NCBI GenBank assembly: GCA_042217585.1
Contig: JBDGSJ010000021.1
Span: 1 to 36,852, forward strand
Origin: Candidatus Nanohaloarchaea archaeon
Lineage (GTDB): Archaea; Nanohalarchaeota; Nanosalinia; Nanosalinales; Nanosalinaceae
Reading direction: 5' to 3'
Length of the DNA stretch: 36,852 bases
Part shown: one piece after another, positions 7,878 to 30,972 of the stretch
Layout: the number at the start of each line of letters is the position of its first letter
How positions within the stretch are numbered: position 1 is the stretch's first letter
Position numbers and translations under genes: made by a program
The notes under the pieces: generated by a model
The model's input: the letters and a program-made list of their open reading frames with translations, nothing else
Databases searched by the model: none
Told to the model about the DNA's origin: nothing

Positions 7878-7954
7878 GCGGACCGCACCTGTTAAAAGCC
7901 TGAAGCCCCCATTCACGGTGTAAGGGGGTTGAGGGGGGTCGACCGTGGAGTTTT

Positions 7955-8665: not shown

Positions 8666-8666
8666 G

Positions 8667-9203
8667 ATGGAAGAGAAGAAGGCAAGACTCGAGGCCGCAC
8701 TTTACCTGTCGGATGAACCGATCGACCGGGAGGAGATAGCGGACGTCCTGGACCTGGGTAGCATGGGCTACGTCGACATGCTGATAGAGGAGTTCGAGGA
8801 GGACCTTGAGGCGGAGAACCGTGGGATGGAGCTGGTGGAGACCGGGGACGGCTACGAGCTGAAGGTGAAGAGGGACCATCTCGACCACGTCGAGCACCTG
8901 GCGCCGCACCAGGACCTGAACGAGGGACAGCTCCGGACCCTCTCGCTGATCGCGTACAACGCGCCGGTGGAGCAGACCGACATCGTGGATATAAGGGGTA
9001 ACAGGACCTACCAGCACGTGAAGGAGCTGGTGGACCGCGGGTTCATCTCGAAGGAGAAGGACGGCAGGACCGCGATACTTGACACGACCGACTTCTTCCT
9101 TGACTACTTTGATATCGACTCGCTGGAGGAGTTCCGGCGGCAGTTCGAGAACGAGCAGAAGGGCAGAGAGGGAGAGCAGCAGGGGATGGAGATGTACGAG
9201 TGA
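8667..9203 (+). CDS. scpB: kite subunit ScpB
   Basis: Motifs LEAALY, LRTLSLIAY..PV.Q..I..IRG and TTDFFLDYF. Confidence 0.93.
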   Translation: MEEKKARLEAALYLSDEPIDREEIADVLDLGSMGYVDMLIEEFEEDLEAENRGMELVETGDGYELKVKRDHLDHVEHLAPHQDLNEGQLRTLSLIAYNAPVEQTDIVDIRGNRTYQHVKELVDRGFISKEKDGRTAILDTTDFFLDYFDIDSLEEFRRQFENEQKGREGEQQGMEMYE

Positions 9204-14677: not shown

Positions 14678-15757
14678 TTATTCCTTTTTCAGGGAGCTGA
14701 CGGTTGACCTGAACGTCTCCGCCGGAACCCTGTTCATGTAGACGCCGTGGCCCCCATCCCGTTCAGATCTCTCGTAGAAGAACCAGGCCGAACCGTTGAA
14801 CAGCTCCACGGACATGTACCTCAGGGCCCCTGACCCCGCGGACGACCTGATGGCCTCGCCGGGGTCCGACCCCACGAAGACCTTCCCGTTTCTCAGGAAG
14901 CCGTACCGAGATCTCTCCTGAGTGACGTGGAAGATGGAGGGCCTCCAGTCGTAGAAGACAAGCTGACTGCCGTTCACATCCAGGATCGAATCGAGCCGTG
15001 GAGCCCTGCCTGAACCAGGTCCGAAACTGATCTCTCGGAGGTACTCTGGTCCGCTGTCGCCGGTCCTGTAGACCAGAGTCGCCTGTTCCGTGAAGCTTGA
15101 TGAAGAGGCATGAACGTACAGTTTCCCGTCGTGAAGGACCGGGTCCTTGTAATGAGTGAAACCTGTATCGAATCGAAGTCTCCGGGCTTCAGAGGGCTGG
15201 AAACCGGAGATACTGGATGAGGTCATCTTCATTATCTCCCAGCGACCGCTGGAACCGTTCTGGTAGCTCAGGTAAAGCACGTAACCCCCGTCCCTCTTTC
15301 CGATCGCCGCTCCCTCTATCGATAGCGCCCCTATCTCCTCTTTATGTACGGTCCAGATGGTCTCCATCCGGGAACCCAGCTGTATGATGGACCCCCTGAA
15401 ACCTCTCCTCTCCGGTCCCCGGGACCGGGTGTACAGGTAGATACCCTCACCTCTGACAGCCAGGGATGAAGGGCTTCCCACCCAGTTCCCGGTCCCGCCC
15501 CTGGCTGACCTCAGGCGGACCGCCCTCTCAGGATCGAAGAACGGGTTCGCCGCCTCAACCCTATCAGTGAACGCGCCGTATAGGACCCTTCCCGCCGCCC
15601 TCACCCGTGTCTCCACCTGGTTCCTGAATCCGTTGAACCCTGTGCTGTAAAGGCGATCAGATACCTCGCCAAGGACCTCCCACGGACCGACCCCTGCGAG
15701 CGAGACACCTGAGAGAACCACGGAAAGGACCAGGAGAGCACTCAGACCTTTTCTCAA
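14678..15757 (-). CDS. secreted or membrane-anchored beta-propeller glycoside-hydrolase-like protein (GH32/43/130-type fold)
   Basis: N-terminal signal/TM segment; blade-like motifs WVGSPS, SIEGAAI and HYKDPVL. Confidence 0.5.
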   Translation of the reverse strand: MRKGLSALLVLSVVLSGVSLAGVGPWEVLGEVSDRLYSTGFNGFRNQVETRVRAAGRVLYGAFTDRVEAANPFFDPERAVRLRSARGGTGNWVGSPSSLAVRGEGIYLYTRSRGPERRGFRGSIIQLGSRMETIWTVHKEEIGALSIEGAAIGKRDGGYVLYLSYQNGSSGRWEIMKMTSSSISGFQPSEARRLRFDTGFTHYKDPVLHDGKLYVHASSSSFTEQATLVYRTGDSGPEYLREISFGPGSGRAPRLDSILDVNGSQLVFYDWRPSIFHVTQERSRYGFLRNGKVFVGSDPGEAIRSSAGSGALRYMSVELFNGSAWFFYERSERDGGHGVYMNRVPAETFRSTVSSLKKE

Positions 15758-15908: not shown

Positions 15909-16991
15909 ATGGATCCGGGAGAGGTATCTGATCACACAGTGAAGGAAGTGAAGGAGAAGGTAAAAGGCGGAGATATCAGCGCTGAAGCGGCGCTGGATGC
16001 CGAGAGGTCTGGCAAGGAACGGAAAACGCTCACAGGATGGCTTGAAAAAAGGGCTGAAGACGGAGAAACAGTTTCACAAGAACAGGAGGATTCAGATACT
16101 ATGGACGATTCAAAGAAGGAAAAGATGAGGGAAAAAGCGGAGGAAATCGAGTCATCGATCGAAGAAGTAACCTCGTCTTTCGAAACACTTTCATCCGTCT
16201 CCTCACAGATGGCGGAGAGAAGCGAGAAGCAGGCAGAAAACCTGGATGAACTTAAGTCAGGTATAAACGAGATATCAGCTTCTGCAGAGCAGATAGCGAA
16301 CAACTCGGAGGACGCCGCCGACTCAATATCCAACATAAACAGGTTCTCCCAGCAGGCAGGCCAGTCAGCCGAGGAAGGGATGAGCAAGATGGAGGAGATG
16401 GAAGAGACAGTCTCCGAGGCCCGGAGCTCGGTTGAGGAATTGACGGAGAAAAGCAAGAACATAAGGGAGATAACGAAGACTATAAACGATATCGCGGAGA
16501 AGACCGACCTCCTGGCACTGAACGCCTCCATCGAGGCCGCAAGGGCCGGTGAGCAGGGACGCGGATTCGCCGTCGTCGCCGACGAGGTCAAGCAGCTCGC
16601 GGAGAACACCTCGAACTCCACAGAGGACATATCGAACATGGTCGAGGACATGGAGAACAGCATAGACGACGTGAGCGAGAAGATCGGCCAGACCGAGGAT
16701 ATACTGGAGAACAGCTCGGGCGTTATCAGGTCAGCTCTAACGGCTCTCGAGGAGATATCCGACGAGATATCCAACCTTTCCTCCGAGATGCAGGAGATAT
16801 CCGCCGCGGCCCAGCAGCAGTCCTCCAGCACCATGGACATCGGGGAGACCGCCGAACAGGTCTCTTCAGCCGCAGAAGAGCTCTCAGCAGGCATACAGGA
16901 GGTCACATCCACCGTCGAGGAGGAAAGCACCAAGATAGAGAAAGTCGAAGAAGACATCAAGGAGACGCGTGAAATCCTTGAGGACACGTAG
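15909..16991 (+). CDS. soluble methyl-accepting chemotaxis protein with no TM, HAMP or recognisable sensor domain
   Basis: Hairpin tip [38 protein letters not shown]. Methylation-type sites [18 protein letters not shown] and QEVTST. Confidence 0.93.
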
Positions 16992-17004
16992 AGGCGTGTA
17001 AAAA

Positions 17005-17580
17005 ATGCAAGGAGAGGAGGAAGAAGAATCGCTGGCCGATACCACCCAGATATTCGTGTTTGAACTGGCCGGGGAGGAGTACGCGCTGGAGATAGAGAGA
17101 GCCAAGGAAGTTATCAAGGCCGACGAGAAGAAGATAAACCCTGTTCCCAACGTACCAGACTACATACGCGGGATAACGAACATCAGGGGCCAGGTAGTCC
17201 CTGTGATAGATCTAGAACCGCGTTTCGACCTGAAAGAGAACGAGAGCAAGTTTATAGTCGTGATAGAGGTGAACGATGCCAGCGCGGGTATGCTGGTGGA
17301 TGATGTCAAGGAAGTCCTGGACGTGAAGAAGGACCGTATAAAGGATTCTCCGTCGATACTGGAGGAGGAGATACACGCGGACTACATAAAGGGAGTCGCG
17401 GTCCTTGATGAGCGCCTGATAATCATACTGGATCTCGAGAACGGACTCGGCGAGGAGGAAGCGATGAAGATAAATGAGATAGGGGAGAAGATGGGAGAGG
17501 ACGAAGACGAGGAGGATGAAGAGGAACTGACCCAGGAAGAGATACGGAAAAAGGCCAAGGAAAGAGTTAAGGAGAGCTGA
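17005..17580 (+). CDS. cheW: chemotaxis coupling protein CheW with acidic C-terminal tail
   Basis: Motifs FELAGEEYAL, VPNVPDYIRGITNIRGQVVPVIDL and GMLVDDV. Confidence 0.95.
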   Translation: MQGEEEEESLADTTQIFVFELAGEEYALEIERAKEVIKADEKKINPVPNVPDYIRGITNIRGQVVPVIDLEPRFDLKENESKFIVVIEVNDASAGMLVDDVKEVLDVKKDRIKDSPSILEEEIHADYIKGVAVLDERLIIILDLENGLGEEEAMKINEIGEKMGEDEDEEDEEELTQEEIRKKAKERVKES

Positions 17581-17943
17581 TCACTCCATATCCAGCACGT
17601 CCTTGATGGTGGCCTTGACATCATCGTTCTCGAAGGGCTTCTCGACGAACTCCTCGGCGCCCAGATCCATCGCCTCGTCGACCATCTCCTGCTGACCGAC
17701 TGCCGAAATCATTATGACCGTGGCGTCGCTCTCCATCTCCTTTATCTGCTTGAGGGCCTCTATCCCTCCCATCTCCTCCATGACGATGTCCAGGAGGACT
17801 ATGTCCGGTCTGCTGTCCCTGTACTTCTCGACTGCCTGCTCGCCGTTCTCCGCTTCCTTTATCTCGTCGAAGCCGAGGTCCTCCAGGATGTTGACCAGTA
17901 TCTTCCTCATGAAGGAGGAGTCTTCAGTTACGAGTGCTTTCAT
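17581..17943 (-). CDS. cheY: chemotaxis response regulator CheY
   Basis: Single receiver domain with ED..FMR, LLDIVM (phospho-Asp), MISAVGQ and KPF. Confidence 0.92.
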   Translation of the reverse strand: MKALVTEDSSFMRKILVNILEDLGFDEIKEAENGEQAVEKYRDSRPDIVLLDIVMEEMGGIEALKQIKEMESDATVIMISAVGQQEMVDEAMDLGAEEFVEKPFENDDVKATIKDVLDME

Positions 17944-18305
17944 TCTTCCTCACCCAGTATTTCCTCAATTTTAGGTATAAGCTTTTCCTTGGTTATCGGC
18001 TTCTGGACGTAACCCTTCGCCCCTATCTCCTTTGTCTCATCTATCGTGTCCTGCTCCCTCACGATCGAGACGACTATCACGTCCGCGTCTCTCTCCTCAA
18101 GCTCCTTCAAGACCTCTATACCATCCATATCAGGAAGCCTGAGGTCCAGCAACACGAGATCCGGCTCTTCCTCGTCGTACTTCTCGATACCTTCCTCTCC
18201 CTCGCCGGTCTCGATTATATCGTCGTATCCCTCATCCTTCAAAAGCTTGATTATGGCCTTTCTCTCAAATATCGAATCCTCTATCGAAAGTATTGTCGGG
18301 CCCAT
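17940..18305 (-). CDS. second single-domain response regulator (CheY-like, 121 aa)
   Basis: Start MGPTILSIEDS at 18305; LLDLRLPDMDG, VVS and KP. Stop overlaps the cheY start by 4 nt. Confidence 0.88.
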   Translation of the reverse strand: MGPTILSIEDSIFERKAIIKLLKDEGYDDIIETGEGEEGIEKYDEEEPDLVLLDLRLPDMDGIEVLKELEERDADVIVVSIVREQDTIDETKEIGAKGYVQKPITKEKLIPKIEEILGEEE

Positions 18306-18473
18306 AGCTCCAAGTAGACAGGCTTTTTTTAAAACGTTTATGAGTTCCCTGGAAGCCGGTACGCCGGGACGCGACATGGATATCTCCCCCGTGCGCGGAC
18401 CGACCGCATGGCTTTTATATGATAGATCAACTAACGGTATTAAGGAAAAGGTCCCGGAGGAGCACAATCAAAA

Positions 18474-19079
18474 ATGAAGAATTCTAAACTTACAGAACTT
18501 CAGAGGGACGGAATCAGCGAGATAGGGAATATAGGTGCTGGAAGAGTAGCTACCCGTCTCTCGGACATAACAGGGAAACGGGTCAACCTGAGCGTCCCTC
18601 AGGTGGACATAATCCCTCCTTCCGCGACCGAGAACATAACCGAACTGGCGGAGAACCCTCACTCGCCGATCGTGAGCGTCTTCTCACCTCTGAAGGGTAT
18701 AGGGGGAGGTATCGTCCTTAGCTTCCAGAAGAAGGAGTACTCGCAGTTCCTGAACCTGCTTGAGGAAGATGAGGATGGCAGCAACGACAACCTCCTTGAG
18801 ATAGGCGAGGAGACTGCGGACATATACCTTGATTCCATGGAGCAGTTCCTGGAGCTTAACGTCGATACCGAGGAACCTGACCTGATCTTCCTTCCGCTCG
18901 AGGGCCTTTTCAAGAACATCGTGGCCGAGATAGGCTCAGAAAGCGAGGAAGAATCCGATATACTCGTCGTCAAGACAGTCATGGAGATAGAGGACGTGGT
19001 GAAGGGCGAGATAACGATGATAATAGAGATAGAGGAGACCGACAGGATAATAGACGCGCTTGAAAAGCGTATGGGCTAG
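18474..19079 (+). CDS. cheC: CheC-family CheY-P phosphatase; first active site intact, second degenerate
   Basis: DGISEIGNIGAG matches D/S-x3-E-x2-N. The second site LLEIGEE lacks the Asn. Confidence 0.85.
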   Translation: MKNSKLTELQRDGISEIGNIGAGRVATRLSDITGKRVNLSVPQVDIIPPSATENITELAENPHSPIVSVFSPLKGIGGGIVLSFQKKEYSQFLNLLEEDEDGSNDNLLEIGEETADIYLDSMEQFLELNVDTEEPDLIFLPLEGLFKNIVAEIGSESEEESDILVVKTVMEIEDVVKGEITMIIEIEETDRIIDALEKRMG

Positions 19080-19540
19080 AAGATCTCTGTAGCCTCGAAG
19101 GGCTTCCTGACCACGACCTTTCCGGACCTGCAGTTCAGCCATATCGATCTCCCTGTGTCACCGCCCACTTCCTGTACTCTCAGGTCTATATCCATCCTCT
19201 TCAGTATCTTGCGGACCGACTCCACGTTCTTATCGCCCACGTTGATGGTCTCCGAAACGACATGCGCCCCACCGAATATCTTTGCGATAAGGTCCTCCGG
19301 GCCAGAGCCCTCCTCTCTTATCTCATCCATCAGGTCATGGATTATGTTCTCGGCGTACTTATCAGAGTCCTCATCCTCTCCCTCGGGAAGCATGACATGG
19401 GCAAGCCCTCCCAGCTCCCGGTCCTCATCGTAGAGACAGACCGCGACACAGCTCCCGAGACCCTGGGCGCTGAGCACATCACCATCTTTCCCGACCCTGT
19501 ACTCCCCCATCTTGACCTCTATCTGTCTCTTCCGGTCCAC
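19076..19540 (-). CDS. cheD: chemoreceptor glutamine deamidase CheD
   Basis: GLGSCVAVCLYD...GGLAHVMLP (catalytic Cys/His), AKIFGGA and VGG..GR. Confidence 0.95.
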   Translation of the reverse strand: MDRKRQIEVKMGEYRVGKDGDVLSAQGLGSCVAVCLYDEDRELGGLAHVMLPEGEDEDSDKYAENIIHDLMDEIREEGSGPEDLIAKIFGGAHVVSETINVGDKNVESVRKILKRMDIDLRVQEVGGDTGRSIWLNCRSGKVVVRKPFEATEIF

Positions 19541-20178
19541 TACTGATCTACCTCTATCCTGTCCAGTATCAAGTCATACTTGCCGGGTTCGAATATCAGC
19601 ATGAAGAAGGCCTTTGTCTCCTTCTGCAGGGAGAAGTTGGTCTCGAACACCAGGACCTCATCTTCCTCCTCCGCGACCTCGAGGAGGTACTCATCCATTA
19701 TCGCACCCAGCAGGTCGGTCCCCTGCTGTGGCACGCCTTCGACGAGCTTCAGGTCCACGTACTCGGTTATCGCCGCGAGGCAGCTCCCCGCCAGTATGTT
19801 GCCGGTCTCGCTGAGCGAGGACCTCTGCATCTCACTCAGTTCTTCCCCTTCAACCTCCTGACTGGTGAGGTCCTCGGCGAGCTGTTTGGCAGATTCCCAG
19901 TCCAGAGAGAGAAGTAGGTGGCCCAGTTTCGTCTCATCATCGCCTTCGTGGTTCTTGACGCTCACCTTGATCGCCACCACGGTCACCGGCTGAGAGTAGC
20001 CTCCCAGGAGGTCCGGAACATCCTTTATCCTGTGACTCCTGATGTTCGGGAACGTTACCTCCACCTTTTCATCAGTCAGTTCGGAAAGAGATTTTGAAGC
20101 GTTTCCCGCGCCCACGTGAGCTATCTCCCTAAGCGCGTCCAGTTTCTCCTCGCTCAGATCCATATTCTCAATCACCAA
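19540..20178 (-). CDS. cheC: CheC-family CheY-P phosphatase; first site N-to-H, second intact
   Basis: DALREIAHVGAG and SSLSETGNILAG. Start may be ATG 20163. Confidence 0.88.
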   Translation of the reverse strand: MVIENMDLSEEKLDALREIAHVGAGNASKSLSELTDEKVEVTFPNIRSHRIKDVPDLLGGYSQPVTVVAIKVSVKNHEGDDETKLGHLLLSLDWESAKQLAEDLTSQEVEGEELSEMQRSSLSETGNILAGSCLAAITEYVDLKLVEGVPQQGTDLLGAIMDEYLLEVAEEEDEVLVFETNFSLQKETKAFFMLIFEPGKYDLILDRIEVDQ

Positions 20179-21748
20179 GTAATGAACTTATCTCGACTAT
20201 TATCGTTGGGTTTCCATCCGCAAGTATCGAGGCACCCGCCACCCCCTTGGGTTCGAGTATATCCAGGTCCTTGATGACGAGATCCTGGACGTTCGTGATC
20301 CGGTCCACGACCAGTCCTGCTCTCTCGTTTCCTTTCTGAACCACGACCGCGTTTATCTGGTCCCTATCCCTGCCCGCATCGGCGACGTCGAACCGGTCCT
20401 CCAGCATGATCAGCGGTATCTCCTCCTCCTGGAATACGAAGACCTCCTCTTCCTCAAGGCTCTTTATATCTTCCTTACCGAGCGAAACCGCCTTGATTAT
20501 GTTGTTTATCGGTATACCGAACCTCTGATTCCCTACCTGGACCAGGAAGCAACGGACTATAGCCAGTGAGAGCGGGACCTGCATCTTTATCGTCGTCCCG
20601 TGGTCCAGCTCAGTCTCTATATCGTAGGTGCCCTGAAGCTTCTCTGCGGTCTTCTTCACTACGTTCAGGCCTACACCCCTTCCCGATACCTGTGTTACCT
20701 CGTCGGTCGTCGAGAAGGAGGGCTGGAAGAGGAGGTCCAGCGTCTCCTCCCTCGAAAGTTCCTTCTTCTCCTCCTCGTCTATCACTCCTTTCTCGACCGC
20801 TTTATCCCTGACATCCCTGGGGTTTATACCTCTTCCATCGTCCTCTACGGCTATTATCACCTCGTTACCTTTCCTCTCTGCGCTCAGCTTGATACTGCCC
20901 TCGGGATCCTTCCCTTTATCCTCCCTCTCCTCCGGGCTCTCGATCCCGTGGTCCACGGCGTTCCTTATCATGTGGAGGATCGGTTCCCCTATCTCGTCAA
21001 GTATGGTCCTGTCCAGTCTCAGGTCCTCACCCTCTATCTCGAAGTTGACCTGTTTGTCCATGTCACTGGCGATATCCCGGACCGCTCTCGGGAACCGGTC
21101 GAACACCTGCGAAGCCGGTATCATACGTGCCTGGGATGCCTCGTGCTGTATGTCCTCGCCGAGACGTTTCAGCGTGTTCATCGCCGATTCCACGTCATCG
21201 GACTCGAAAGGAGTCAGCAGCTTCCTCAGCCTCTTCTCGACGATCATCAGCTCGCCGAGAGAGTTCATGATCTTGTCAAGCCGCTCTATATCCACCTGGA
21301 CCCTCTGAATCTCCTCGAACTCCTCCGGGCTCTCCGCCACGGAGTCGGAGGACATCTCCTCAAGTTCCTCCCCCTTCTGTGCGTGTTCAAGGTTCTCCAG
21401 AAGGTCAGAGATATCGCGGTCCGGCTCCTCGACGTTTTCCCCGGCGTACTCCACCATCTCCTCTAGGGTGTCTATCGAGTTGAAAAGAAGGTCGAAAAGT
21501 TCATCATCCGGCTCTATATCTCCCTCCTGCAGGGCGTTAAATACATCCTCCATGGAGTGCGAGAGCTCGGCTATCTTCTCGAACTCCATGGTCCTCGAGG
21601 ACCCCTTCAGGGTGTGAGCCGAACGAAAAAGCTCGTTGAGCGCCTCCTCATCCCCAGATTCCTCGAAATCGAGCATACTCTCGTTCATGTTGTCGAGCAT
21701 GTCATTCGCTTCGTCCATGTAGTCGTCGAGAAATTCTTCTTTTTCCAT
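20168..21748 (-). CDS. cheA: chemotaxis histidine kinase CheA lacking the P2 (CheY-binding) domain
   Basis: HPt LFRSAHTLKG, short linker, dimerisation domain VQVDIERLD, HMIRNAVDHG, DDGRG, SGRGVGL and C-terminal CheW-like domain; 526 aa. Confidence 0.96.
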   Translation of the reverse strand: MEKEEFLDDYMDEANDMLDNMNESMLDFEESGDEEALNELFRSAHTLKGSSRTMEFEKIAELSHSMEDVFNALQEGDIEPDDELFDLLFNSIDTLEEMVEYAGENVEEPDRDISDLLENLEHAQKGEELEEMSSDSVAESPEEFEEIQRVQVDIERLDKIMNSLGELMIVEKRLRKLLTPFESDDVESAMNTLKRLGEDIQHEASQARMIPASQVFDRFPRAVRDIASDMDKQVNFEIEGEDLRLDRTILDEIGEPILHMIRNAVDHGIESPEEREDKGKDPEGSIKLSAERKGNEVIIAVEDDGRGINPRDVRDKAVEKGVIDEEEKKELSREETLDLLFQPSFSTTDEVTQVSGRGVGLNVVKKTAEKLQGTYDIETELDHGTTIKMQVPLSLAIVRCFLVQVGNQRFGIPINNIIKAVSLGKEDIKSLEEEEVFVFQEEEIPLIMLEDRFDVADAGRDRDQINAVVVQKGNERAGLVVDRITNVQDLVIKDLDILEPKGVAGASILADGNPTIIVEISSLLGD

Positions 21749-21754
21749 GACAGA

Positions 21755-22738
21755 TCAGGTCAGCTCCATTATCTTTTCGGGTATTTTCTCAAGGGGTACC
21801 ACGTAATCGGCATCTCCCTGCCTAATTACTTGTTGCCCCATCCCGAATATTAAACTTGTATCCCGGTCCTGAACTATAATTTTTCCCCCTGCCGAGCTCA
21901 GGAAACGGGTCCCGACAGCCCCGTCCCGGCCCATACCGGAGAGTATCACTCCAACAGCGTTCGTACCGAACACCTCGGCCACGGACCTGAACGTGGCATT
22001 CACAGAGGCTATATCCTCCGAATCGCTTTCCTCCTCTACAAGGAAGAACTCCTCTCCCCTCCTCTCGACCTTCATGTCCTTCTCCGAGCGGGATATCCAC
22101 ACCTGCCCCGGTCCAAGCCTCTCCGAGTCAGAACATAACCTCACATCGAGTTCCGAAAGGCTGTCCAGCCGATTCGCGAACAGCTCGACCATCGGACCTG
22201 ACATGTGCTGGACCACGAGCACAGGAACCTCGAGATCGCCGGGAAGGTTCTTCAGTATGAACTCTATCTCCGGTGGTCCGCCCGTCGATGCCCCTATGAC
22301 GACTACCTGCTGGGAGAAATCCGGAGATTCTTTCTCCTTCCTGATCCGTGATTCCACCTGCTCCTTTACCCGGGCTCCGCCAACGGCCCTGAGGAGAGCT
22401 CTCTTGTCTTCAGCAGAATCCTCAGGCGTTATAAAATCTACAGCCCCGTATGAGAACGCCTTGACGGCCTCCCTTCTTTCCACATCCGCATCATCCAGTA
22501 TCATAACCGTCGGGATTTTTTTCAGGTCCATAACCTCCTCCAGAACGTCAAGACCAGACATCTGACCAAAATTAACTCCAAGCAGAAGAACATCGATATC
22601 TCGATTCTTCAGAGCCTCAAATACATCCGTGGGACGATGGAAAACCCCTACTACCTCTATATCATCTTCCTGACCGATCTCTCTGCTGATCTGGCGCCTT
22701 CTTTCGAATTCAGGATGCGCTATCGCTACCTTGAGCAT
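21755..22738 (-). CDS. cheB: CheB methylesterase with pseudo-receiver domain
   Basis: Catalytic GASTGG, VQHM and SGMGRDG are intact. The receiver reads VAIAHP (no DD) and VLLLGV (phospho-Asp replaced by Gly). Confidence 0.92.
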   Translation of the reverse strand: MLKVAIAHPEFERRRQISREIGQEDDIEVVGVFHRPTDVFEALKNRDIDVLLLGVNFGQMSGLDVLEEVMDLKKIPTVMILDDADVERREAVKAFSYGAVDFITPEDSAEDKRALLRAVGGARVKEQVESRIRKEKESPDFSQQVVVIGASTGGPPEIEFILKNLPGDLEVPVLVVQHMSGPMVELFANRLDSLSELDVRLCSDSERLGPGQVWISRSEKDMKVERRGEEFFLVEEESDSEDIASVNATFRSVAEVFGTNAVGVILSGMGRDGAVGTRFLSSAGGKIIVQDRDTSLIFGMGQQVIRQGDADYVVPLEKIPEKIMELT

Positions 22739-22901
22739 GTTTTTAGTTCTACCAGAGAGTGATTTAAATCTGAGACAGATCTCTGAACACGTTCACGGAT
22801 CCAATATAGTCCTTAGATGACCCAGAAACCGGCTCATGTAGCCAGAAAATGGTAGCATTTTTAAACAAGTTCTCTTTAGAGTAAAACAGGGTTTCTTACC
22901 C

Positions 22902-24272
22902 ATGGAAATTAAGACGAAGATAGCAGGATCCCTTCTCGCTCTGGTAGTAGTGACAGGCCTTCTACTGGGCACGCTGGGAGTAACCGCCCTACAGAACGCA
23001 GAGAGAAAGGCCACGAACACTGCCCAGAAAGAGGTCCGGCAGATCACAGAATCCAGGCTGACCGCTGTAAGAGACGCCAAGGTCAACAAGTACAACCAGA
23101 TGCTCGGGGAAGTCGAGCACGACGCCAAGGCAGCGGCGCACTGGATACAGTACCGTTACGACGGTCTGCCGTCGGACGAAGCCTTCCACTACCAGAACGA
23201 GTCCAAGGACACCGCTAAGATCGGTTTCTACGTGCCGCCGAACAACACCTACGGCGTGCGGCACGCACCCGGCCAGCAGGATGAACTCACTAAGCTGTCC
23301 TATGTCGGACACTACCTGCGCGGAGTAGTCAAGAACTCCGACCTGGTGACTTTCGGCTACCACTGGTCCGAGAGAGTCAACAGCCAGGCAACGGTGGTCT
23401 ACGAGACCAACATCTCAGGAACTCTCTGGGCCGGTCCAGGACCACAGGACAACGTGAAGCTGATCGGGGTCAACAGGCCTTATTACGAACAGGCCAAGGC
23501 CAAGGACCACGGAGTATGGGTCCGGCCCTACGTTGACGCCAACACAGGACAGCTGACGACGACTTACGCGGAGCCGGTATACGCTTCGCCTGAAGAGGAA
23601 GAGTTCGTCGGCGTCGTGGGGCTTGACGTCCTTTTCTCGACACTCCAGAACGATCTCCTGTCACTTGACGGCATGCCTGAGGGAAGCTTCGGTTTCCTTC
23701 TAGACTCCACAGGCAAGCCGGTCGTTTACCCGGGAGTAAGCGGCAAGGACGACCAGAAGAAGACGAGATATGGGGAGAGAACTCTCAACACGACGGACCT
23801 GACCACTGCTGAGGACGCGGACATCAGGTCCATCGCGAACTCGATGGTGAACGGAGAGACCGGAATCAGCGAAGCGACATTCCAGAACAGGACCTATCTG
23901 GTCGCCTACGCGCCCCTCAAGAACTCCACGGGCGGATGGTCCGTGGCTCTCGCAGTGCCGAAGAGCGAAGTTACCCAGCCCGTCAGGAACATCGGATCAG
24001 AGATAGGCTCGGTACTCCAGAGGACGCAGAGACAGATGATCACGGGCGGAATCCTCGCCGTGGTCCTGGCAGGAATCGTCGGCTTCTACGTCTCACGCAG
24101 GATAACATCGCCGATTGAGGAACTCACCGAGGAAGCGAACGAGATAGCGAGAGGTAATTTCGTGGACGTCGACGTTGACACGGACGACGAAGTCGGGGAA
24201 CTCGCTGACGCTATCAGAGGCATGGTCAAGAGCCTCAAGCAGATGGCCGGAGAGGAAAGCGGGTCCGAATGA
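22902..24272 (+). CDS. membrane sensor TM-dCache-TM-HAMP with no output domain
   Basis: Two TM helices. Cache motifs RPYY...PYVDANTG...GVVGLDV and AYAPL...WSV. HAMP ITSPIEEL...IARG...DEVGELADAI..M ends about 8 aa before the stop. Confidence 0.9.
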   Translation: MEIKTKIAGSLLALVVVTGLLLGTLGVTALQNAERKATNTAQKEVRQITESRLTAVRDAKVNKYNQMLGEVEHDAKAAAHWIQYRYDGLPSDEAFHYQNESKDTAKIGFYVPPNNTYGVRHAPGQQDELTKLSYVGHYLRGVVKNSDLVTFGYHWSERVNSQATVVYETNISGTLWAGPGPQDNVKLIGVNRPYYEQAKAKDHGVWVRPYVDANTGQLTTTYAEPVYASPEEEEFVGVVGLDVLFSTLQNDLLSLDGMPEGSFGFLLDSTGKPVVYPGVSGKDDQKKTRYGERTLNTTDLTTAEDADIRSIANSMVNGETGISEATFQNRTYLVAYAPLKNSTGGWSVALAVPKSEVTQPVRNIGSEIGSVLQRTQRQMITGGILAVVLAGIVGFYVSRRITSPIEELTEEANEIARGNFVDVDVDTDDEVGELADAIRGMVKSLKQMAGEESGSE

Positions 24273-24389
24273 CCACCACGCCGCACAGATTCCTTTTTTT
24301 ATTATTTTATGAAAAACCTCTATATTGGACTTTTCTGGCACTCCAGAGGATTTTTAAATAGCAAAGCGGTCAATCTTGCTCACAGGAAA

Positions 24390-24683
24390 ATGGTTCTCTA
24401 CAGGGATGTTATAGAGGCGGCGATAGACAAGTTTGTGGACGTTCAGGGCGAAAAAGCGAAGGACGTGGCTGGTGGTATAGAGGGACTGGAGGTCAGGGAC
24501 GACGGTAGCGTGACAAAGATAAACGGCAACAAGAAGGAGATATTCAACGAACTCCTGGACGAATACGTCGAGATGGGAGGACCGGTGGCCACGCTCCTCA
24601 TAAAGAACGGTGTCGAGGACCAGACGGGCAAATCCACGGAGGAGATCGCCACGGAACTGGATCTGCCGGAGAGATTACTCTAG
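24390..24683 (+). CDS. small helical protein (97 aa), possibly a stand-alone STAC-like signalling domain
   Basis: ATG 24390 lies 30 nt after TTTTTAAATA. Two helix-Gly-helix units, FVDVQGEKAKDVA and YVEMGGPVATLLI. Family call is from recalled pattern only. Confidence 0.6.
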   Translation: MVLYRDVIEAAIDKFVDVQGEKAKDVAGGIEGLEVRDDGSVTKINGNKKEIFNELLDEYVEMGGPVATLLIKNGVEDQTGKSTEEIATELDLPERLL

Positions 24684-25244
24684 ATCACCAGACCTCAGAT
24701 CCTCCTTGAACTCCTCTCTCAATCCGTCATCTGCCACATCCACGTCCATTCGATATCCCTGGCCCCTTTCCTCTATCCTTGCGGAGAAATCCTCGGAGTC
24801 AAAGTAGTATGGATTGAACCTTAACATAACGAGGGAGTAAATCTTTTCCTCGACCTTGCGGAAGGATTTCAGGGCGCTGGCGGCCAGCGGCCTGATGAGG
24901 CCTCTCGAGGCCTCCCGGACCTCGTCCGATGGCTTCTCCATCCTTTTGACCTTCTCACCTGCCTCCCTGGCTTTCCTGCCTGCATCCTCGATGTCCTTCC
25001 GGACACCATCGCTTTCCTCCTCCACCTCGTTCGGGTCCAGCTTGGCCTCCTCGACCGTTTTTTCCCTTACATCGGCCTCCGACCCCTCCTCTCTCGGACG
25101 CCACTCCTCGTACTTCTGTATCTTGTCATCATCGACTCCGGATTCCTCAAAACTCCTCTGGACCTTCCGCGCGAAATCAGCTATATCCTTCCAGCTCCCC
25201 CTCATGCTGACCCCGGAGTTGGTCTCCTCGGGACCGTCTCCCAT
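24675..25244 (-). CDS. conserved halophilic-archaeal protein (DUF5828-like)
   Basis: EET.SGV..RG.W...EEWRP...DV.EKT.E.A...PYYFD pattern. Start ATG 25244 follows TTTTATAT on the minus strand. Confidence 0.7.
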   Translation of the reverse strand: MGDGPEETNSGVSMRGSWKDIADFARKVQRSFEESGVDDDKIQKYEEWRPREEGSEADVREKTVEEAKLDPNEVEEESDGVRKDIEDAGRKAREAGEKVKRMEKPSDEVREASRGLIRPLAASALKSFRKVEEKIYSLVMLRFNPYYFDSEDFSARIEERGQGYRMDVDVADDGLREEFKEDLRSGDLE

Positions 25245-25278
25245 AAGACCTAAAGGACACTGGCGGGCATATAAAAGG

Positions 25279-25869
25279 TCACCTGTCGCCGAGGATCCTG
25301 AGACACTCCTCGAAGACCTCTTCGACGGTCCCTGAGGCATCCACCATCTCTATATCTTCCTCCAGCCTCTCTCCGAGTTCCCTGTAGCTGACAGCGACCT
25401 TCTCCTGGAAATCCAGGTCCTCGAATATATTGCCGTCCTCTCCGCGGTCCCTGACCCTTCTCATGCCCGTCCTGGCCCTCACATTGAGAAAGACAGTGAT
25501 GTCCGGCTTTATCGCCTCCGAGTTGAGTTCCCTGACCCAGTCTCTTTCAGCGCCGAGAAGAGGCTGGTAGACAAGGCTGGAGTGGTAATACCTGTCGCAG
25601 ACCACCGTCTCCCCGTCCCTGAGCCGGGGCAGGATCTCCTCCTCAAGGTGGACCATCCGGTCAGCGGCGAAAGCCAGGGCTATCGACTCCGCGGAGCTCT
25701 CCCCCTCTGATATCATCTTATCTACTTTCCGGCCTATCTCGCCAGAAGTGGGCTCGGCGGTCCAGTACGCATCAAGTTCCTCTGCAGTCCTCCTCGACTG
25801 CGTTGTCGTTCCGGAGCCGTCCGGACCCTCGAAAACGATGAAACGGCCGGGAAACTCTTCCTCTCTCAC
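25279..25869 (-). CDS. tmk: thymidylate (dTMP) kinase
   Basis: Motifs FIVFEGPDGSGTTTQ, EPT, FAADR, VVCDRYYHSSLVYQ and PDIT. Confidence 0.95.
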   Translation of the reverse strand: MREEEFPGRFIVFEGPDGSGTTTQSRRTAEELDAYWTAEPTSGEIGRKVDKMISEGESSAESIALAFAADRMVHLEEEILPRLRDGETVVCDRYYHSSLVYQPLLGAERDWVRELNSEAIKPDITVFLNVRARTGMRRVRDRGEDGNIFEDLDFQEKVAVSYRELGERLEEDIEMVDASGTVEEVFEECLRILGDR

Positions 25870-25896
25870 ACGGATGTTTTCGCCCCGAACTTCATA

Positions 25897-26097
25897 TCAG
25901 TTTGTGAGCGCATCCCATATCTGCCAGAGATATACCAGGGGCAGGATAACAGGTGCGAGAGGACCCAGCAGAGCTATACCTATACCCAGGGAGCTACCTG
26001 CGATAGCCCAGACTATCACGGCCTTCAGGAGGTCCCGGTTGAGCAGCTGGCCGAGACCGGGGATAATCGCCGACGCTATAGCTGCTATCACACCCAT
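25897..26097 (-). CDS. small membrane protein (66 aa)
   Basis: AAIASAIIPGLGQL motif typical of TM2-like small membrane proteins; ends W.IWDA. Confidence 0.75.
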   Translation of the reverse strand: MGVIAAIASAIIPGLGQLLNRDLLKAVIVWAIAGSSLGIGIALLGPLAPVILPLVYLWQIWDALTN

Positions 26098-26175
26098 AGA
26101 TGAGGTGTGGAGTTCGCAGGACTTAATTCCTTCCCCGGCGAAAGATTATTGGCTCGGGTCCACGAAACCTTGGTC

Positions 26176-27435
26176 ATGAGGAACAGGGACCTGGAAGACG
26201 CGGACCCTGAAGTCCATGAAGCCCTCAAAAAAGAGGTGGAGAGGCAGGAGAGCGAGTCCCTCGAGATGATAGCCTCCGAGAACTTCGTCCCGAGACAGGT
26301 GCTCCAGGCGCAGGGCTCAGTCCTGACGAACAAGTACGCCGAGGGCTACCCCGGCAACCGTTACTACGCGGGCTGCGAGCACCACGACACGGTGGAGGAG
26401 CTGGCGAGGGAGCGGGCCTGCGAGATATTCGACGCGGACCACGCCAACGTCCAGCCCCACTCGGGCTCACAGGCGAACTTCGCCGCCTACTTCTCGGTGC
26501 TTGAAGCCGGAGACAGGGTGCTGGGACCGGTCCTGAGCCACGGAGGACATCTGACGCACGGCCACCACGTGAACTTCTCGGGCGAGCTTTTCGACTTCGA
26601 CACTTACTCCATCGACAGGGAGACCGGGAGGTTCGAGCGCGGGGAGATCATCGAGGCGGCGGAGGAACACGACCCGGAGATGATAGTCTGCGGGTACTCC
26701 GCCTATCCCCGGGAGATAGATTTCTCTGCTTTCCGGGAGGCGGCGGACCGCGTCGACGCATACCTGATGTGCGACATAGCCCACATCTCGGGTCTCGTCG
26801 CCGCGGGCGAACACCCCTCTCCGTTTCCCGAGTGCGATATAGTGACCACGACCACCCACAAGTCGATACGGGGTGCGAGAGGCGGGATGATAATGTGCCG
26901 GGAGGAACTGGCTGACGACGTGGACAGCGCGGTCTTCCCGTTCACGCAGGGAGGACCCCTGATGCACCAGATCGCGGGCAAGGCAGTCTGCTTCGGCGAG
27001 GCGATGAAACCGGAGTTCCGGGAGTACGCCGCACAGGTTAAGAAGAACGCCCGGGCTCTCGCGGGATCCCTGAGGGAGAACGACGTACGGCTGGTCTCCG
27101 GCGGGACCGACAACCACCTCGTCCTTGCGGACCTCAGGGATGAAGATGTGACGGGCAGAGAGGCCGAGAGGGCGCTGGAGGAGTCAGGGATAATCGTCAA
27201 CAAGAACATGGTCCCCTACGACCCCGAAGGTCCGAAGGTGACGTCGGGCATACGTGTAGGGACCCCGGCGCTGACGACCCGGGGGATGGAGGAGGACCAC
27301 CTCCGGGAGATAGGCAGGATGATAGCGAAGGTGATCAGGGATCCCTCATCCGGGGTGAAGTCGGAGGTCCGCGAGAGGGCGGAGGAGATGCTGGAGGAGC
27401 ACCCGCTCTACAGGGGCTCTGAGGTCGATTACTGA
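26176..27435 (+). CDS. glyA: serine hydroxymethyltransferase
   Basis: Motifs LEMIASEN, NKYAEGYPG.RYY, NVQPHSGSQAN, HGGHLTHG, TTTHK (PLP Lys) and SGIRVGTPA. Start ATG 26176. Confidence 0.97.
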   Translation: MRNRDLEDADPEVHEALKKEVERQESESLEMIASENFVPRQVLQAQGSVLTNKYAEGYPGNRYYAGCEHHDTVEELARERACEIFDADHANVQPHSGSQANFAAYFSVLEAGDRVLGPVLSHGGHLTHGHHVNFSGELFDFDTYSIDRETGRFERGEIIEAAEEHDPEMIVCGYSAYPREIDFSAFREAADRVDAYLMCDIAHISGLVAAGEHPSPFPECDIVTTTTHKSIRGARGGMIMCREELADDVDSAVFPFTQGGPLMHQIAGKAVCFGEAMKPEFREYAAQVKKNARALAGSLRENDVRLVSGGTDNHLVLADLRDEDVTGREAERALEESGIIVNKNMVPYDPEGPKVTSGIRVGTPALTTRGMEEDHLREIGRMIAKVIRDPSSGVKSEVRERAEEMLEEHPLYRGSEVDY

Positions 27436-27491
27436 GCCACGGGTTAAACTGAAATACTGTCGTCGAGAAGGTCTTTCCGGAGGGGAGTCAG

Positions 27492-28586
27492 ATGGAACAG
27501 TACCAGAGACTGGTAAGGAACATACTCGAAAACGCGAACTACCGTCCCAACAGGACATCCGCGGACACGCTGTCGACCTTCTCGCAGTCGTACACGATCG
27601 ACCTCTCGGAGGGATTCCCTCTCCTCACGACGAAGGACCTCTCCGGCTACAGGTGGAACTCGCTGATACACGAGCTCCTCTGGTACTTCTCCGGCGAGGA
27701 ACACATCAGGAACCTCAGGGAGGAGACGAAGATATGGGACGCCTGGGCGGACGACGAGGGAAAGCTTCCGACCGCCTACGGCCGTTTCTGGAGGCGCTAC
27801 CCCGTACCGGACCGGGAGTCCCGGCTGGACGGCGAGTGGTGGCCCGTGGACGACGAATGGGTGGAGAAAGCCGCCAAAAAATACGATCTGACGGAAGAAG
27901 AGATAAGGGAAGGGTTCGACCGATGGATAGAGGAGGAAGAGGACGGCAGGAAAGTGTTCGACCAGATAAAGTACGTCATCGACACATTAAACGGGAAACA
28001 TCCGTATAGAGGACCTGAAAGCCGGCGGCTCGTGGTGAACGCGTGGCATCCGGCGAACGCCGCGGTCTCAAAGCTTCCGCCCTGCCACTACAGCTTCGTC
28101 TTCAACGTCCAGAACGGGAAGCTCAACACCCACCTGACGCAGCGGTCCGGCGACACCGCCCTTGGAATACCTTTCAACATCGCCGCCTACGCTCTGATAA
28201 CCAAGATAGTCGCGAAGCAGACAGAGTTCGAGCCCGGAAAGTTCTCACACACCATAGTGGACTCCCACATCTACTGCGGGAGGAACGAGCGGGGCGGATG
28301 GTACGAGGAAAACGTCGAAGAGCTCAGTGAACGGGTCAGAGGCGTCTCCAGCCGCGAGGAGTTCCTCGAGGTCCGCGACTGGATACAGGAGAACGCGCCT
28401 GAGGAGAGAGATGGCGAGGAGCGGTACGACCACGTACCCGGCCTCCTGAAGCAGCTCTCCCGGGAGCCGGGAGAGAGACCGGAGATGGAGCTGCCGGAGA
28501 AGAGCATAGACGAACTGGAGTACGGGGACTTCGAGCTGAAAGGTTACGAACCCCACCCAGGGATAAAGTTCGAAGTGGCGGAGTGA
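27492..28586 (+). CDS. thyA: thymidylate synthase ThyA with insertions
   Basis: Motifs GFPLLTTK, ELLW, IWDAWA, SRRLVVNAW, LPPCH, QRSGD..LGIPFN and DSHIY. Confidence 0.96.
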   Translation: MEQYQRLVRNILENANYRPNRTSADTLSTFSQSYTIDLSEGFPLLTTKDLSGYRWNSLIHELLWYFSGEEHIRNLREETKIWDAWADDEGKLPTAYGRFWRRYPVPDRESRLDGEWWPVDDEWVEKAAKKYDLTEEEIREGFDRWIEEEEDGRKVFDQIKYVIDTLNGKHPYRGPESRRLVVNAWHPANAAVSKLPPCHYSFVFNVQNGKLNTHLTQRSGDTALGIPFNIAAYALITKIVAKQTEFEPGKFSHTIVDSHIYCGRNERGGWYEENVEELSERVRGVSSREEFLEVRDWIQENAPEERDGEERYDHVPGLLKQLSREPGERPEMELPEKSIDELEYGDFELKGYEPHPGIKFEVAE

Positions 28587-29755
28587 TGGGATACAGAGAG
28601 GCCGTGGAGGAGCTGACCTCGAGAGGCTCGGACCGGAAGGAACCGGCGCTGGAGAACACGAAAAAGGCTCTGGAGGAACTCGGAAGGCCTGACCGCGAGA
28701 CAGAGATCATCCTCGTGGGAGGGACGAACGGGAAGGGATCGGTCTCCGGGATGATATACGAGATGCTGAGGAGCCAGGGAAATTCAGCAGGGCTTTTCAG
28801 GTCCCCACACCTCGTGGACCTGAGGGAGAGGGTGGAGAAAGACGGGGAGATGATAGGCCGGGAGGAGTTCATGGAGCTCTACCAGAGGATCGGATCGCTG
28901 GAGCCGGAGCTCAGCTTCTTCGAGTTCATGACTGTCCTCGCGTACAGATTTTTCCGGGACACGGACTACGCCGTCATGGAGGTCGGCATGGGTGGAAGAC
29001 TGGATGCGACGAACGCCGCAGAGCCCGAGATCGCGGTCATAACCAACGTGGAGCTCGAGCACAGGAAATACCTCGGCAGGACCCGGGAGAAGATAGCGGA
29101 CGAGATAGCAGGGATAACGCCGGAGGACGGCGTCCTCGTGACCGACGTGGAGCTGGAAAACGTGATCGATGAGGCCGAGAGGAATGGTACAGCCATTCTA
29201 CGCCCCGAAAAATCCGGGACAGAAGGGGAAGACCACATCGTGGGGGAGGAGAGGTTCGATATACCTCTCAGAGGGTCCTTCCAGTCCGCCAACCTTGCTG
29301 ACGCCCTGAAAGCCGTGGAGGCGCTGGGGGAGAGACCTGACGACGTCGAAGGATCGCTCTCGGGCATATCATGTCCGGGCAGGATGGAGGTGGTGGACCG
29401 GGACCCTCTCTACATCCACGACGGGGCGCACAACCCTCACGCCCTGCGGGAAGTGATCTCCGACTACCCTGAGGGTTTCGCGGCGGTCTTCAGCGCCTTG
29501 GAGTCGAAGGAAGTCGACAGGATGGTGGAGGTGCTGGAGGAGAAGGCCGAGGTCCTCTACCTGACTGAGTCGGACGTGGACTGGTGCATGAACCCGGATG
29601 AGATACAGGAGCTCTGCTCCGTGCGGTCGGAGGTGGTGAGGGATCCCGGAGAAGCTGTAAGGACTGCTCGAGACCGGGGACTCCCTGTCGTGGTGACGGG
29701 CTCCCTGTACCTGGTGGGGGCGGTGAGGTCCAGGTCTATGAACGACCGTAACTGA
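28583..29755 (+). CDS. folC: folylpolyglutamate synthase / dihydrofolate synthase
   Basis: Motifs VGGTNGKGS, SPHL...RER, EVGMGGRLDATN, PGRME, DGAHN and TGSLYLVG. Confidence 0.95.
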   Translation: MMGYREAVEELTSRGSDRKEPALENTKKALEELGRPDRETEIILVGGTNGKGSVSGMIYEMLRSQGNSAGLFRSPHLVDLRERVEKDGEMIGREEFMELYQRIGSLEPELSFFEFMTVLAYRFFRDTDYAVMEVGMGGRLDATNAAEPEIAVITNVELEHRKYLGRTREKIADEIAGITPEDGVLVTDVELENVIDEAERNGTAILRPEKSGTEGEDHIVGEERFDIPLRGSFQSANLADALKAVEALGERPDDVEGSLSGISCPGRMEVVDRDPLYIHDGAHNPHALREVISDYPEGFAAVFSALESKEVDRMVEVLEEKAEVLYLTESDVDWCMNPDEIQELCSVRSEVVRDPGEAVRTARDRGLPVVVTGSLYLVGAVRSRSMNDRN

Positions 29756-29783
29756 TTAACTGTTGGGAACCGGGACCTCACCC

Positions 29784-30491
29784 ATGAGCTGGGAGGAGAA
29801 GTACTACGAGGACATACTCCCGGAGATTCAGCGTTACGCGGAAGAGGAAGCCTCCTCCTTCACCAGCAGGGACATATCGGAGAGGCTTGAAGGTTACAGC
29901 TCTTCCGAGGTCGGGAAGACCCTGAAGTACGTGGTCGAGAACGACCTGACGGACCACGTCCTGATGACCGGCAACCATCCCAAGAGCTGGGAGGCGGTCC
30001 TTCTGGACGGAAAGGCCTGGGAGCTGGCGGAGTACGGGATGGATGTCGAGCCGGCGGAACCCCAGGAGGAAGACGTGGAGGAGGAAGAGAAAAAGTTCTC
30101 GCCGCCGGAGGAGATAAGATGGATGTCCTCGAGGATCAGGGATTCGGGACTGGAGCCGGGTCTGGCGGAGCTGAGCGAGCCGGAGTACGGACGGCTCCGC
30201 AGGAATATCGGCGACGTGTACCCCGCGCTGGAGGAGGTCCGTGAAAGCGACTCACTCTTCGGGGCGGGGGACCTGGATGACCGCGTCGAGGGAGTGAGAC
30301 CGGCGGAGATCGGACTTGTGCTCTCGGGGCTGGAGTCAGCCGGTCTGCTGGAGAGCTACGGTGACAGGAACCTCTACCGGCCGGATTCCGTCGACATGGA
30401 CCGTATAGACAGTTTCATGGAGGTCCTCGAGAGGGCGGACTCCCTGGAGGAAATCGAAGGATACTTGGATGGCACCGGGGAAAACAACTGA
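29784..30491 (+). CDS. hypothetical protein with two winged-helix-like repeats
   Basis: FTSRDISERLEGYSSSEVGKTLKYV and FGAGDLDDRVEGVRPAEIGLVLSGL. Start ATG 29784. Confidence 0.65.
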   Translation: MSWEEKYYEDILPEIQRYAEEEASSFTSRDISERLEGYSSSEVGKTLKYVVENDLTDHVLMTGNHPKSWEAVLLDGKAWELAEYGMDVEPAEPQEEDVEEEEKKFSPPEEIRWMSSRIRDSGLEPGLAELSEPEYGRLRRNIGDVYPALEEVRESDSLFGAGDLDDRVEGVRPAEIGLVLSGLESAGLLESYGDRNLYRPDSVDMDRIDSFMEVLERADSLEEIEGYLDGTGENN

Positions 30492-30492
30492 C

Positions 30493-30972
30493 ATGGAGAA
30501 GGTCATCATCGCGGCGCTGGACGAGGACCGGGTCATCGGGAAGGACGGCGACGTGCCCTGGCACTACCCGGAGGACGTCAAGCATTTCAGGGAGACGACG
30601 ATGGGGAGCCCGGTCGTGATGGGAAGGAAGACCTACGAGTCCCTGCCGGAGGACTACAGACCTCTACCGGGCAGGACCAACATAGTACTGACGCGGTCCG
30701 GAAAGGATTACGGGGAGGAGACCAGGAAGGCCGGAAGCCTCGAGGAGGCCTGGGAGGAGGCGGAAAAGACCGGGGAAGACACGGTATACATAATCGGAGG
30801 AGAATCAGTCTACAGGCAGACCCTGGAACAGGCGGACAGGATGGTCCTGACCGAGATACCCGGGGAACACGACGGCGACACCTACTTCCCGGACTGGGAC
30901 GGGGAGGACTGGCGCGAGACCTCGAGGGATGATATCGGGGACCTCTCCATCGTGGAGTACACCCGCGTCTGA
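30493..30972 (+). CDS. folA: dihydrofolate reductase
   Basis: Motifs IIAALDEDRVIG..G.VPW, D..HF...T, VMGRKTYES, PLPGRTNIVLTR, IIGGE and GDTYFP. Confidence 0.96.
   Translation: MEKVIIAALDEDRVIGKDGDVPWHYPEDVKHFRETTMGSPVVMGRKTYESLPEDYRPLPGRTNIVLTRSGKDYGEETRKAGSLEEAWEEAEKTGEDTVYIIGGESVYRQTLEQADRMVLTEIPGEHDGDTYFPDWDGEDWRETSRDDIGDLSIVEYTRV

Follow-up and report, generated by a model that had tools for sequence, protein, structure and literature searches.

Whether a membrane receptor without output domain and a signalling protein without sensor, encoded at opposite ends of one chemotaxis gene cluster, are two halves of a single chemoreceptor is the question raised by the window analysed here, the 36,852 nt contig C14 of a Candidatus Nanohaloarchaea archaeon (genome G000; 980 kb in 38 contigs, 89.7% complete). 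At one end of its che genes lies a methyl-accepting chemotaxis protein (MCP), and at the other a receptor with a dCache sensor that ends at its HAMP domain, followed by the gene for a small helical protein that we call X (Table 1). A sequence-only reading of the locus had taken the MCP and the receptor for complementary halves of one transmembrane receptor, an idea against which both the ancestry of the receptor and the gene order speak. We lean, at somewhat less than an even chance, to an account in which the receptor and the MCP are two old, separate proteins, and in which the receptor together with X, or a paralogue of X, forms a receptor and adaptor of the Af1503/Af1502 type known from Archaeoglobus fulgidus.

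The proteins of G000 are acidic, matching DNA is present in salt-lake metagenome runs, and 70 small genomes, G000 included, served as the comparison set for the phylum. No RNA data set was listed as containing the stretch, and one run with a small share of it (X3) was left aside. In the accessible parts of the two papers concerned, cheAWCDBY have already been reported in sediment families of Nanohaloarchaeota (PMC9765267), and a survey of 352 archaeal genomes reported no che genes in DPANN (PMC9680633). Our literature search, with most subscription journals and supplements outside its scope, gave no paper on a dCache member of the Af1503 class in DPANN, and none on the X family or on a link between X and che genes. 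Each part of the system is of a known kind, namely a soluble MCP, a receptor of the Af1503 class, a STAC-like partner and nanohaloarchaeal che genes. The HAMP domain of Af1503 is a standard model of transmembrane signalling. Since a single MCP and a single HAMP protein are present in this 1-Mb genome, and no further kinase was found, the output of Af1503-type receptors and their STAC partners becomes testable here with few soluble proteins.

The receptor gene is intact and many of its relatives end at HAMP

A domain search recovered MCPsignal, dCache_1 and HAMP, the three families anticipated by the sequence-only reading. The receptor (456 aa) has the order TM-dCache_1-TM-HAMP (TM, transmembrane helix) according to Pfam and hydropathy, with HAMP at residues 397–447 and nine residues behind it, which bears out the architecture proposed earlier, and it holds the only HAMP match of G000. 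The features sought in an Af1503-like receptor are present, as an extracellular sensor lies between two transmembrane helices and HAMP is the only cytosolic part. Single contigs from two sequencing runs of one study, which may be the source samples of the assembly, span positions 16568–24571 and 16568–25500 and cross the receptor stop codon without a gap; each has two differing letters, and the sole change inside the receptor gene is in the third position of an Ala codon. Receptor orthologues with 31% identity share the end point of the protein, and all seven aligned MCPs (that of the window and six orthologues) share the start Met. Both genes are real and intact, so the earlier description as clean open reading frames without a frameshift scar stands. 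The opposite reading, that an assembly error or a recent truncation has cut a full-length receptor short, could draw on the 38-contig state of the assembly, and the two-run contigs and the shared ends refute it for practical purposes, leaving it a negligible chance.

The best solved-structure match of the dCache domain was PctA (E 1e-8). Like the dCache_1AA sensors to which PctA belongs, as described in the accessible text of PMC8915833, the receptor keeps the equivalents of R126, Y144 and D173 (R192, Y210 and D242), and it differs in that the five-residue motif (Y121, R126, W128, Y144, D173) is incomplete, with L187 for Y121 and Y194 for W128. Four of the five positions are kept in the four phylum orthologues, which have Phe at the Y121 position and Trp at the W128 position. 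Judged by this partial motif, the ligand is probably an amino acid or an amine.

A profile of seven receptor sequences was searched against 1.84 billion representatives and the best 150 relatives were classified, 69 of which were also scanned with Pfam. Twenty-eight of these (the window's own included, and a few lower-ranked ones perhaps being contig-end fragments) end at most 35 residues after HAMP and seven have short tails, next to 63 SpoIIE proteins, 23 histidine kinases, 16 GAF-containing proteins, one cyclase, one MCP, five others and six without HAMP. A phosphatase, kinase or cyclase was thus present on 87. For a fusion of the two halves, which the sequence-only reading had proposed to look for, the best 150 gave one MCP-bearing protein, of 1665 aa and at rank 95; among the best 20, 15 end at HAMP, four are kinases and none is an MCP. 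A FastTree phylogeny of 93 rows (at most 22 SpoIIE, 16 kinase and 8 GAF rows; rows without HAMP or with <240 profile positions excluded) grouped the receptor with six other HAMP-ending, halophile-type proteins (support 98), for three of which composition bias was flagged, and formed a second HAMP-ending group of 14 mostly zinc-ribbon-bearing proteins (support 98). Because HAMP-ending relatives are numerous, form groups in the tree and stand against one MCP in the best 150, sequence comparison indicates that ending at HAMP is an old, stable trait that is not derived from an MCP, and that the receptor is no broken chemoreceptor.

Within the comparison set, full receptor orthologues were detected only in G038, G041, G049 and G042. 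All four lie on contigs other than that of the che cluster, among non-che genes, three of them (in one genus) between an HD-domain gene and genes of the SRP54 region, as labelled by eye, and that of G042 being followed by another small helical gene. A tblastn search with seven che proteins (MCP, CheW, CheA, CheB, CheD and both CheC) gave nothing at these four loci, nor in 19 metagenome loci of HAMP-ending relatives (131 kb, many of the loci being short), in which blastp found one generic kinase and two receiver domains. Independence of the receptor from che genes, which the sequence-only reading had named as a point against a shared receptor, therefore holds for the gene neighbourhood but fails for the genome as a whole: all five receptor genomes have a soluble MCP, five of the seven soluble-MCP genomes have the receptor, and none of the 63 others has it. 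The two soluble-MCP genomes without receptor are 71% and 81% complete. A single-protein scan with the receptor over genome contigs gave two distant loci, and a word-indexed protein search, which was crowded out, three matches; a HAMP match in G023, cut by a contig end and foreign in appearance, was dropped as a control. G006 and G031 have a HAMP protein with a fused small domain and no MCP. As a separate observation, in G054 and G042 (L055:6151-9919; L059:2214-5828) a KaiC-like ATPase and a V4R-type protein share an operon with a membrane HAMP-PAS protein that lacks an enzyme domain.

Small helical partners of HAMP-ending receptors

A metagenome scan with five proteins of the second HAMP-ending group yielded 80 loci, and of the closest 19, which were examined, 18 were seen to end at HAMP. 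At nine of these 19, and at none of the other 61 loci, which belong to more distant relatives (662 kb), the neighbouring gene on the same strand encodes a small helical domain at its C-terminus. The nine are all among the 11 loci with at least 1 kb upstream and represent some six independent contexts; the profile was built from five of them and detected the remaining four. The model of this bacterial partner domain (pLDDT 90.5) had Af1502 as its top match among 48,161 chains (Z 7.7, root-mean-square deviation (rmsd) 2.8, 68/68 residues aligned), the next match scoring 6.7. It is because bacterial HAMP-ending relatives adjoin a small helical domain matching Af1502 that we read the receptor and X as a candidate pair of this type. 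According to the accessible text of PMC4834066, Af1503-like receptors, with HAMP as sole cytosolic part, are often coupled to STAC proteins of 60–90 aa with an LGPx(x)A motif.

X is modelled as two helical hairpins joined by a beta-hairpin, plus a fifth helix (pLDDT 92), where STAC has a four-helix bundle of two alpha-hairpins; the start of X was fixed by alignment with 11 paralogues and orthologues. In the family consensus the first turn has LG..xA, lacking the Pro, and the second hairpin has G-P/S/x-x-A, as against LGPx(x)A between helices 1 and 2 in STAC, and from the model we would regard X as STAC-like only as a lead, the assignment being a weak one. Pfam has no family for X, Foldseek gave no match at E 0.001, and neither the sequence profile of X nor that of the bacterial partner retrieved Af1502. 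In the Atlas, X has small unnamed proteins as neighbours, most often from Saccharimonadota and related bacteria. Matches of X to CARD and H-NOX (Z 5–6) were not trusted, and a likeness seen by eye between the small gene of G042, the domain fused after HAMP in G006 and G031 and the bacterial partner was unsupported by hhalign (probabilities ≤3%).

Of the known systems named in the sequence-only reading, Af1503 turned out the closest. Af1503/Af1502, as far as the accessible text of PMC4834066 describes them, share with the present pair the two-pass receptor with HAMP as only cytosolic part and, behind it, the gene for a small two-hairpin helical protein. Here, however, the sensor is dCache_1, X has 97 aa with a beta-hairpin between the helical hairpins and belongs to a family of nine members in G000, and the neighbours are che genes rather than transporters.

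Several observations weigh against a pair of this type that works apart from the che genes. A Z of 7.7 for a small helical bundle falls below the trust level of the tool for helical folds; for the model of X itself Af1502 came only at rank 28 (Z 4.2, rmsd 3.3, 63 aligned), and hhalign matched X to the bacterial partner weakly (probability 39%, E 3e-4). X is not translationally coupled to the receptor, unlike Af1502, and a T-rich tract lies upstream of X in the gap between them. The receptor orthologues of three of the four genomes, of one genus, have no small partner adjacent, which leaves G000 and G042 as the genomes with a small helical gene after the receptor. The co-occurrence of receptor and soluble MCP spans three genera (Fisher p about 8e-4 at genus level, where kin are not independent). 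Finally, searching G000 with single proteins as queries gave no further kinase, phosphatase or cyclase, so that CheA is the most obvious enzyme output.

A further reading sees the receptor gene and X as unrelated neighbours beside cheB, with the MCP answering only to its own N-terminal module or to CheC/CheD feedback. It would fit with the receptor adjoining che genes in one of five genomes, with its long branch in the tree and less acidic composition (Asp plus Glu 0.13 vs 0.18–0.29 in its neighbours), and with a promoter that X may have of its own in the 117-bp gap behind the receptor stop codon. A sigma-70 promoter scan, ill-suited to archaea, gave nothing beyond chance. The recurrent pairing of the receptor family with small helical genes and the genome-level co-occurrence with the MCP make us consider it unlikely.

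The MCP is soluble and its top is occupied

The MCP, the only one of G000, matched MCPsignal at residues 152–321 (E 8e-45), gave no HAMP or sensor family in Pfam and has no transmembrane stretch (best 19-residue hydropathy 0.56). Its residues 72–357 align with a solved Thermotoga-type receptor hairpin with the tip at 214/215, and a signalling domain with conserved tip and no transmembrane helix are the features sought in a soluble MCP. By this alignment the bundle would begin about where a HAMP domain would join, in agreement with the earlier reading. That reading had also called the protein bare, which was correct for membrane, HAMP and sensor parts but missed a module at residues 1–50, folded and helical in Atlas structure rows, without Pfam family, and kept in 7/7 aligned MCPs. 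With this module present, the top of the bundle is not free. Sites that fit a methylation-type consensus are kept on the C-terminal arm. Full-length soluble orthologues (51–57% identity) occur in G035, G038, G041, G042, G049 and G054, while G003 and G022 have the same che genes but ordinary membrane MCPs; the MCP matches of G026 and G039, being fragments, did not count as che systems. Word-indexed protein searches, which were crowded out, returned only unrelated MCPs (27–49%) for the MCP alignment and none for longer MCPs, the latter being weak evidence. G035 encodes a second soluble MCP of 442 aa (L050:8882-17998), and by eye hydrogenase and maturation genes lie beside its che cluster.

The N-terminal module was also found on five other, unrelated proteins of G000, three of which we take to be ribosomal; the Atlas lists an eS24 cluster. 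These three (C26:10591-11037, C3:17660-18793 and C1:6551-7024 of G000), presumably S24e, S3 and L31e, end in an acidic linker and the same 45–50 aa module. Another bearer, an acidic protein of 711 aa, is encoded immediately upstream of a pilus-type ATPase (G000:C6:17850-20015; L184:5851-7983). This might connect the che array with pili, but ribosomal proteins bear the module as well.

These properties bear on whether the HAMP dimer might sit directly on the soluble MCP bundle and so form one transmembrane chemoreceptor in trans. The MCP and the receptor being the sole MCP and sole HAMP protein of G000, the start of the bundle near the normal HAMP junction and the co-occurrence in 5/5 receptor genomes would agree with such docking. 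We nevertheless consider it quite unlikely, as the conserved module of 50 residues and its linker occupy the top of the MCP, fused receptor relatives are not MCPs (1/150), the orthologues are unlinked from che genes in 4/4 other genomes, the HAMP-ending family adjoins a STAC-like gene in bacteria, two of the seven soluble-MCP genomes lack the receptor, and the bipartite receptors described in the accessible parts of PMC2628428 (CetA) and PMC12442639 keep HAMP on the signalling chain. A complex prediction with two HAMP fragments (residues 375–456) and two MCP chains, run without X, scored 0.00, which is evidence neither way. Any functional link between receptor and MCP would most plausibly run via X.

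The comparison with CetA/CetB made in the sequence-only reading does not hold in this respect. In the accessible text of PMC2628428 and PMC12442639, sensing and signalling lie on separate chains, as is likewise proposed here, and a small soluble PAS sensor binds a membrane MCP that keeps its HAMP, the genes being co-transcribed. In the present case the break would fall between HAMP and bundle, and receptor and MCP genes belong to separate units, on different contigs in four relatives. A further comparison is TDE2496/ODP of Treponema denticola. TDE2496 is described, in the accessible text of 10.1101/2020.03.11.986844, as an MCP that has neither membrane nor sensing modules, is able to regulate CheA and depends on a separate sensor; here no coupled ODP-type partner accompanies the MCP, which is the only receptor of its genome and carries an N-terminal module.

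The X family and the che cluster

Members of the X family, nine of them in G000, were found in 22/70 genomes, comprising 9/9 with a che cluster and 13/61 without. In the loci examined, X copies have FIST, V4R and small membrane proteins as neighbours, and in one case X is joined to a roadblock domain; these partners are sensors or switches that lack an enzyme. G006, a single contig of 98% completeness, has six X copies along with its fused-small-domain HAMP protein and no MCP. In an operon of G000 (G000:C2:1210-3429; L167), an X copy and two small membrane proteins are accompanied by a protein whose X-like repeats surround a roadblock domain. An X gene lies at most 5 kb from che genes in five of the seven soluble-MCP genomes (0.4 expected by random placement; 3/4 genera, p about 0.002) and in neither of the two membrane-MCP genomes. 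The che-adjacent copies form no clade (24 rows), and since they are different paralogues, recruitment near che has recurred.

This distribution allows for a possible arrangement, to which we give an appreciable but minor chance, in which the receptor signals through X to the sensor-less MCP, X paralogues serve FIST, V4R and small membrane sensors, and one MCP reads many inputs. The presence of X in every che-cluster genome, the recurrent recruitment near che of soluble-MCP genomes, FIST genes in or beside the che cluster of G042 and G054, and at least one membrane HAMP protein without enzyme domain in 7/7 soluble-MCP genomes all fit with it, and the accessible text on TDE2496/ODP (10.1101/2020.03.11.986844) offers a precedent for a sensor-less MCP served by a separate sensor. 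On the other hand, X and fused-small-domain HAMP proteins also occur in MCP-free genomes (G006, G031), so that X has a task apart from che; an X gene near che is absent from G035 and G042, and signalling genes cluster for general reasons that the random-placement model ignores. We counted the presence of X in 13 of 61 che-free genomes and beside FIST, V4R and small membrane genes in favour of a relay independent of che.

In the reading that we prefer, with receptor and MCP as separate proteins, an outside ligand would bind the dCache domain of the receptor and the transmembrane helices would then shift the HAMP dimer, whose conserved last helix may bind or release a small STAC-like adaptor, either X or one of its eight paralogues. 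The adaptor could be a relay common to several enzyme-free sensors of the lineage (FIST, small membrane and V4R proteins), and its targets need not be chemotactic, with KaiC-like ATPases or transport proteins as examples. The MCP, a conserved soluble receptor, would serve as scaffold for CheA and CheW and be tuned from the cytoplasmic side, its state in G000 perhaps being set by CheD, CheC and CheB rather than CheR. That the receptor-adaptor pair lies beside cheB may reflect a gathering of signalling genes at this place in the lineage.

An unusual che system

CheA, W, Y, B, C and D are all present in the window by Pfam, and an F1-type archaeal chemotaxis system is what we take as the class for comparison. 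Neither a family search nor tblastn detected CheR in G000 (89.7% complete), and strong CheR matches were limited to G038 and G041 among the 70 genomes. CheF was detected in 0/70 genomes and archaellin above cut-off in 0/70, with 18 weak pilin-like matches; ArlD/E were not found in G000, in which four secretion/pilus-type ATPases scored above cut-off. Single-protein queries further found four KaiC-like and four FIST proteins in G000. With neither CheF nor archaellin found in the 70 genomes, the che system must act on some other output, a point of relevance to the way in which these symbionts find hosts. A doubtful conjecture is that in sediment-type nanohaloarchaea one sensor-less soluble MCP might serve as a hub on which several kinds of enzyme-free sensors act through a diffusible STAC-like adaptor, with no CheF or archaellum (and no CheR in G000), probably steering type IV pili toward hosts; if true, this hub design would be the first defined output for Af1503/STAC modules.

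The sediment Nanohaloarchaeota with cheAWCDBY (PMC9765267) agree with the window in their che genes, with cheR likewise absent from the list, and are halophilic DPANN archaea with small genomes, a group into which G000 would fit by its size, acidity and habitat; receptor architecture, the missing CheF and archaellin and the small adaptor family are not discussed in the accessible parts of that paper. In the CheB receiver (21755-22738, by eye) Gly apparently replaces the phospho-accepting Asp, likewise in G003, G022 and G035, and the CheB esterase motifs are intact although no CheR was found in G000.

Gene order and neighbouring genes

The MCP and receptor genes are 5.9 kb apart, and as four opposite-strand genes and several transcription units lie between them, they are not an operon pair; cheB and the receptor gene are divergent with 163 bp between them.

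Table 1. Genes and features of the che region in the window
Feature	Positions	Strand	Basis
Soluble chemoreceptor (MCP), 360 aa: N-terminal helical module, acidic linker, near full-length methylation/signalling hairpin	15909..16991	+	PF00015
Acidic three-helix module of ~50 residues, MCP N-terminus	15909..16058	+	No Pfam family; DUF8129-like models among weak structural neighbours
cheW	17005..17580	+	PF01584
cheY (first)	17581..17943	-	PF00072
cheY (second)	17940..18305	-	PF00072; start set at Met preceding receiver domain, from translation
cheC (first)	18474..19079	+	PF04509
cheD	19076..19540	-	PF03975
cheC/cheX-like (second)	19540..20178	-	PF13690, PF04509
cheA (Hpt, dimerisation, HATPase and CheW domains)	20168..21748	-	Domain matches
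cheB	21755..22738	-	Domain matches; esterase motifs kept
Receptor: TM-dCache_1-TM-HAMP, ending at HAMP, Af1503-like architecture	22902..24272	+	Pfam, alignment, tree
X: 97-aa two-hairpin helical protein, candidate divergent STAC-like adaptor	24390..24683	+	Alignment, structure model

Divergent from the MCP gene lies that of a 359-aa protein (14678-15757) with a signal-like N-terminus and no Pfam family, which was not found in the che loci of relatives. On the other side, a DUF5828 gene (24675-25340) adjoins the che region, and in G049 it adjoins cheY. Further away, the window encodes a short SMC (845 aa) with ScpA and ScpB (5340-9203), and a thymidylate/folate cluster (25279-30972) of tmk, glyA, thyA, a Mur-ligase-type folC, an unknown gene and DHFR, which is notable in a reduced genome. 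An open reading frame of >1700 aa with DUF2341 and NEW3 domains (31707-36851) runs off the contig and probably encodes a large surface protein.

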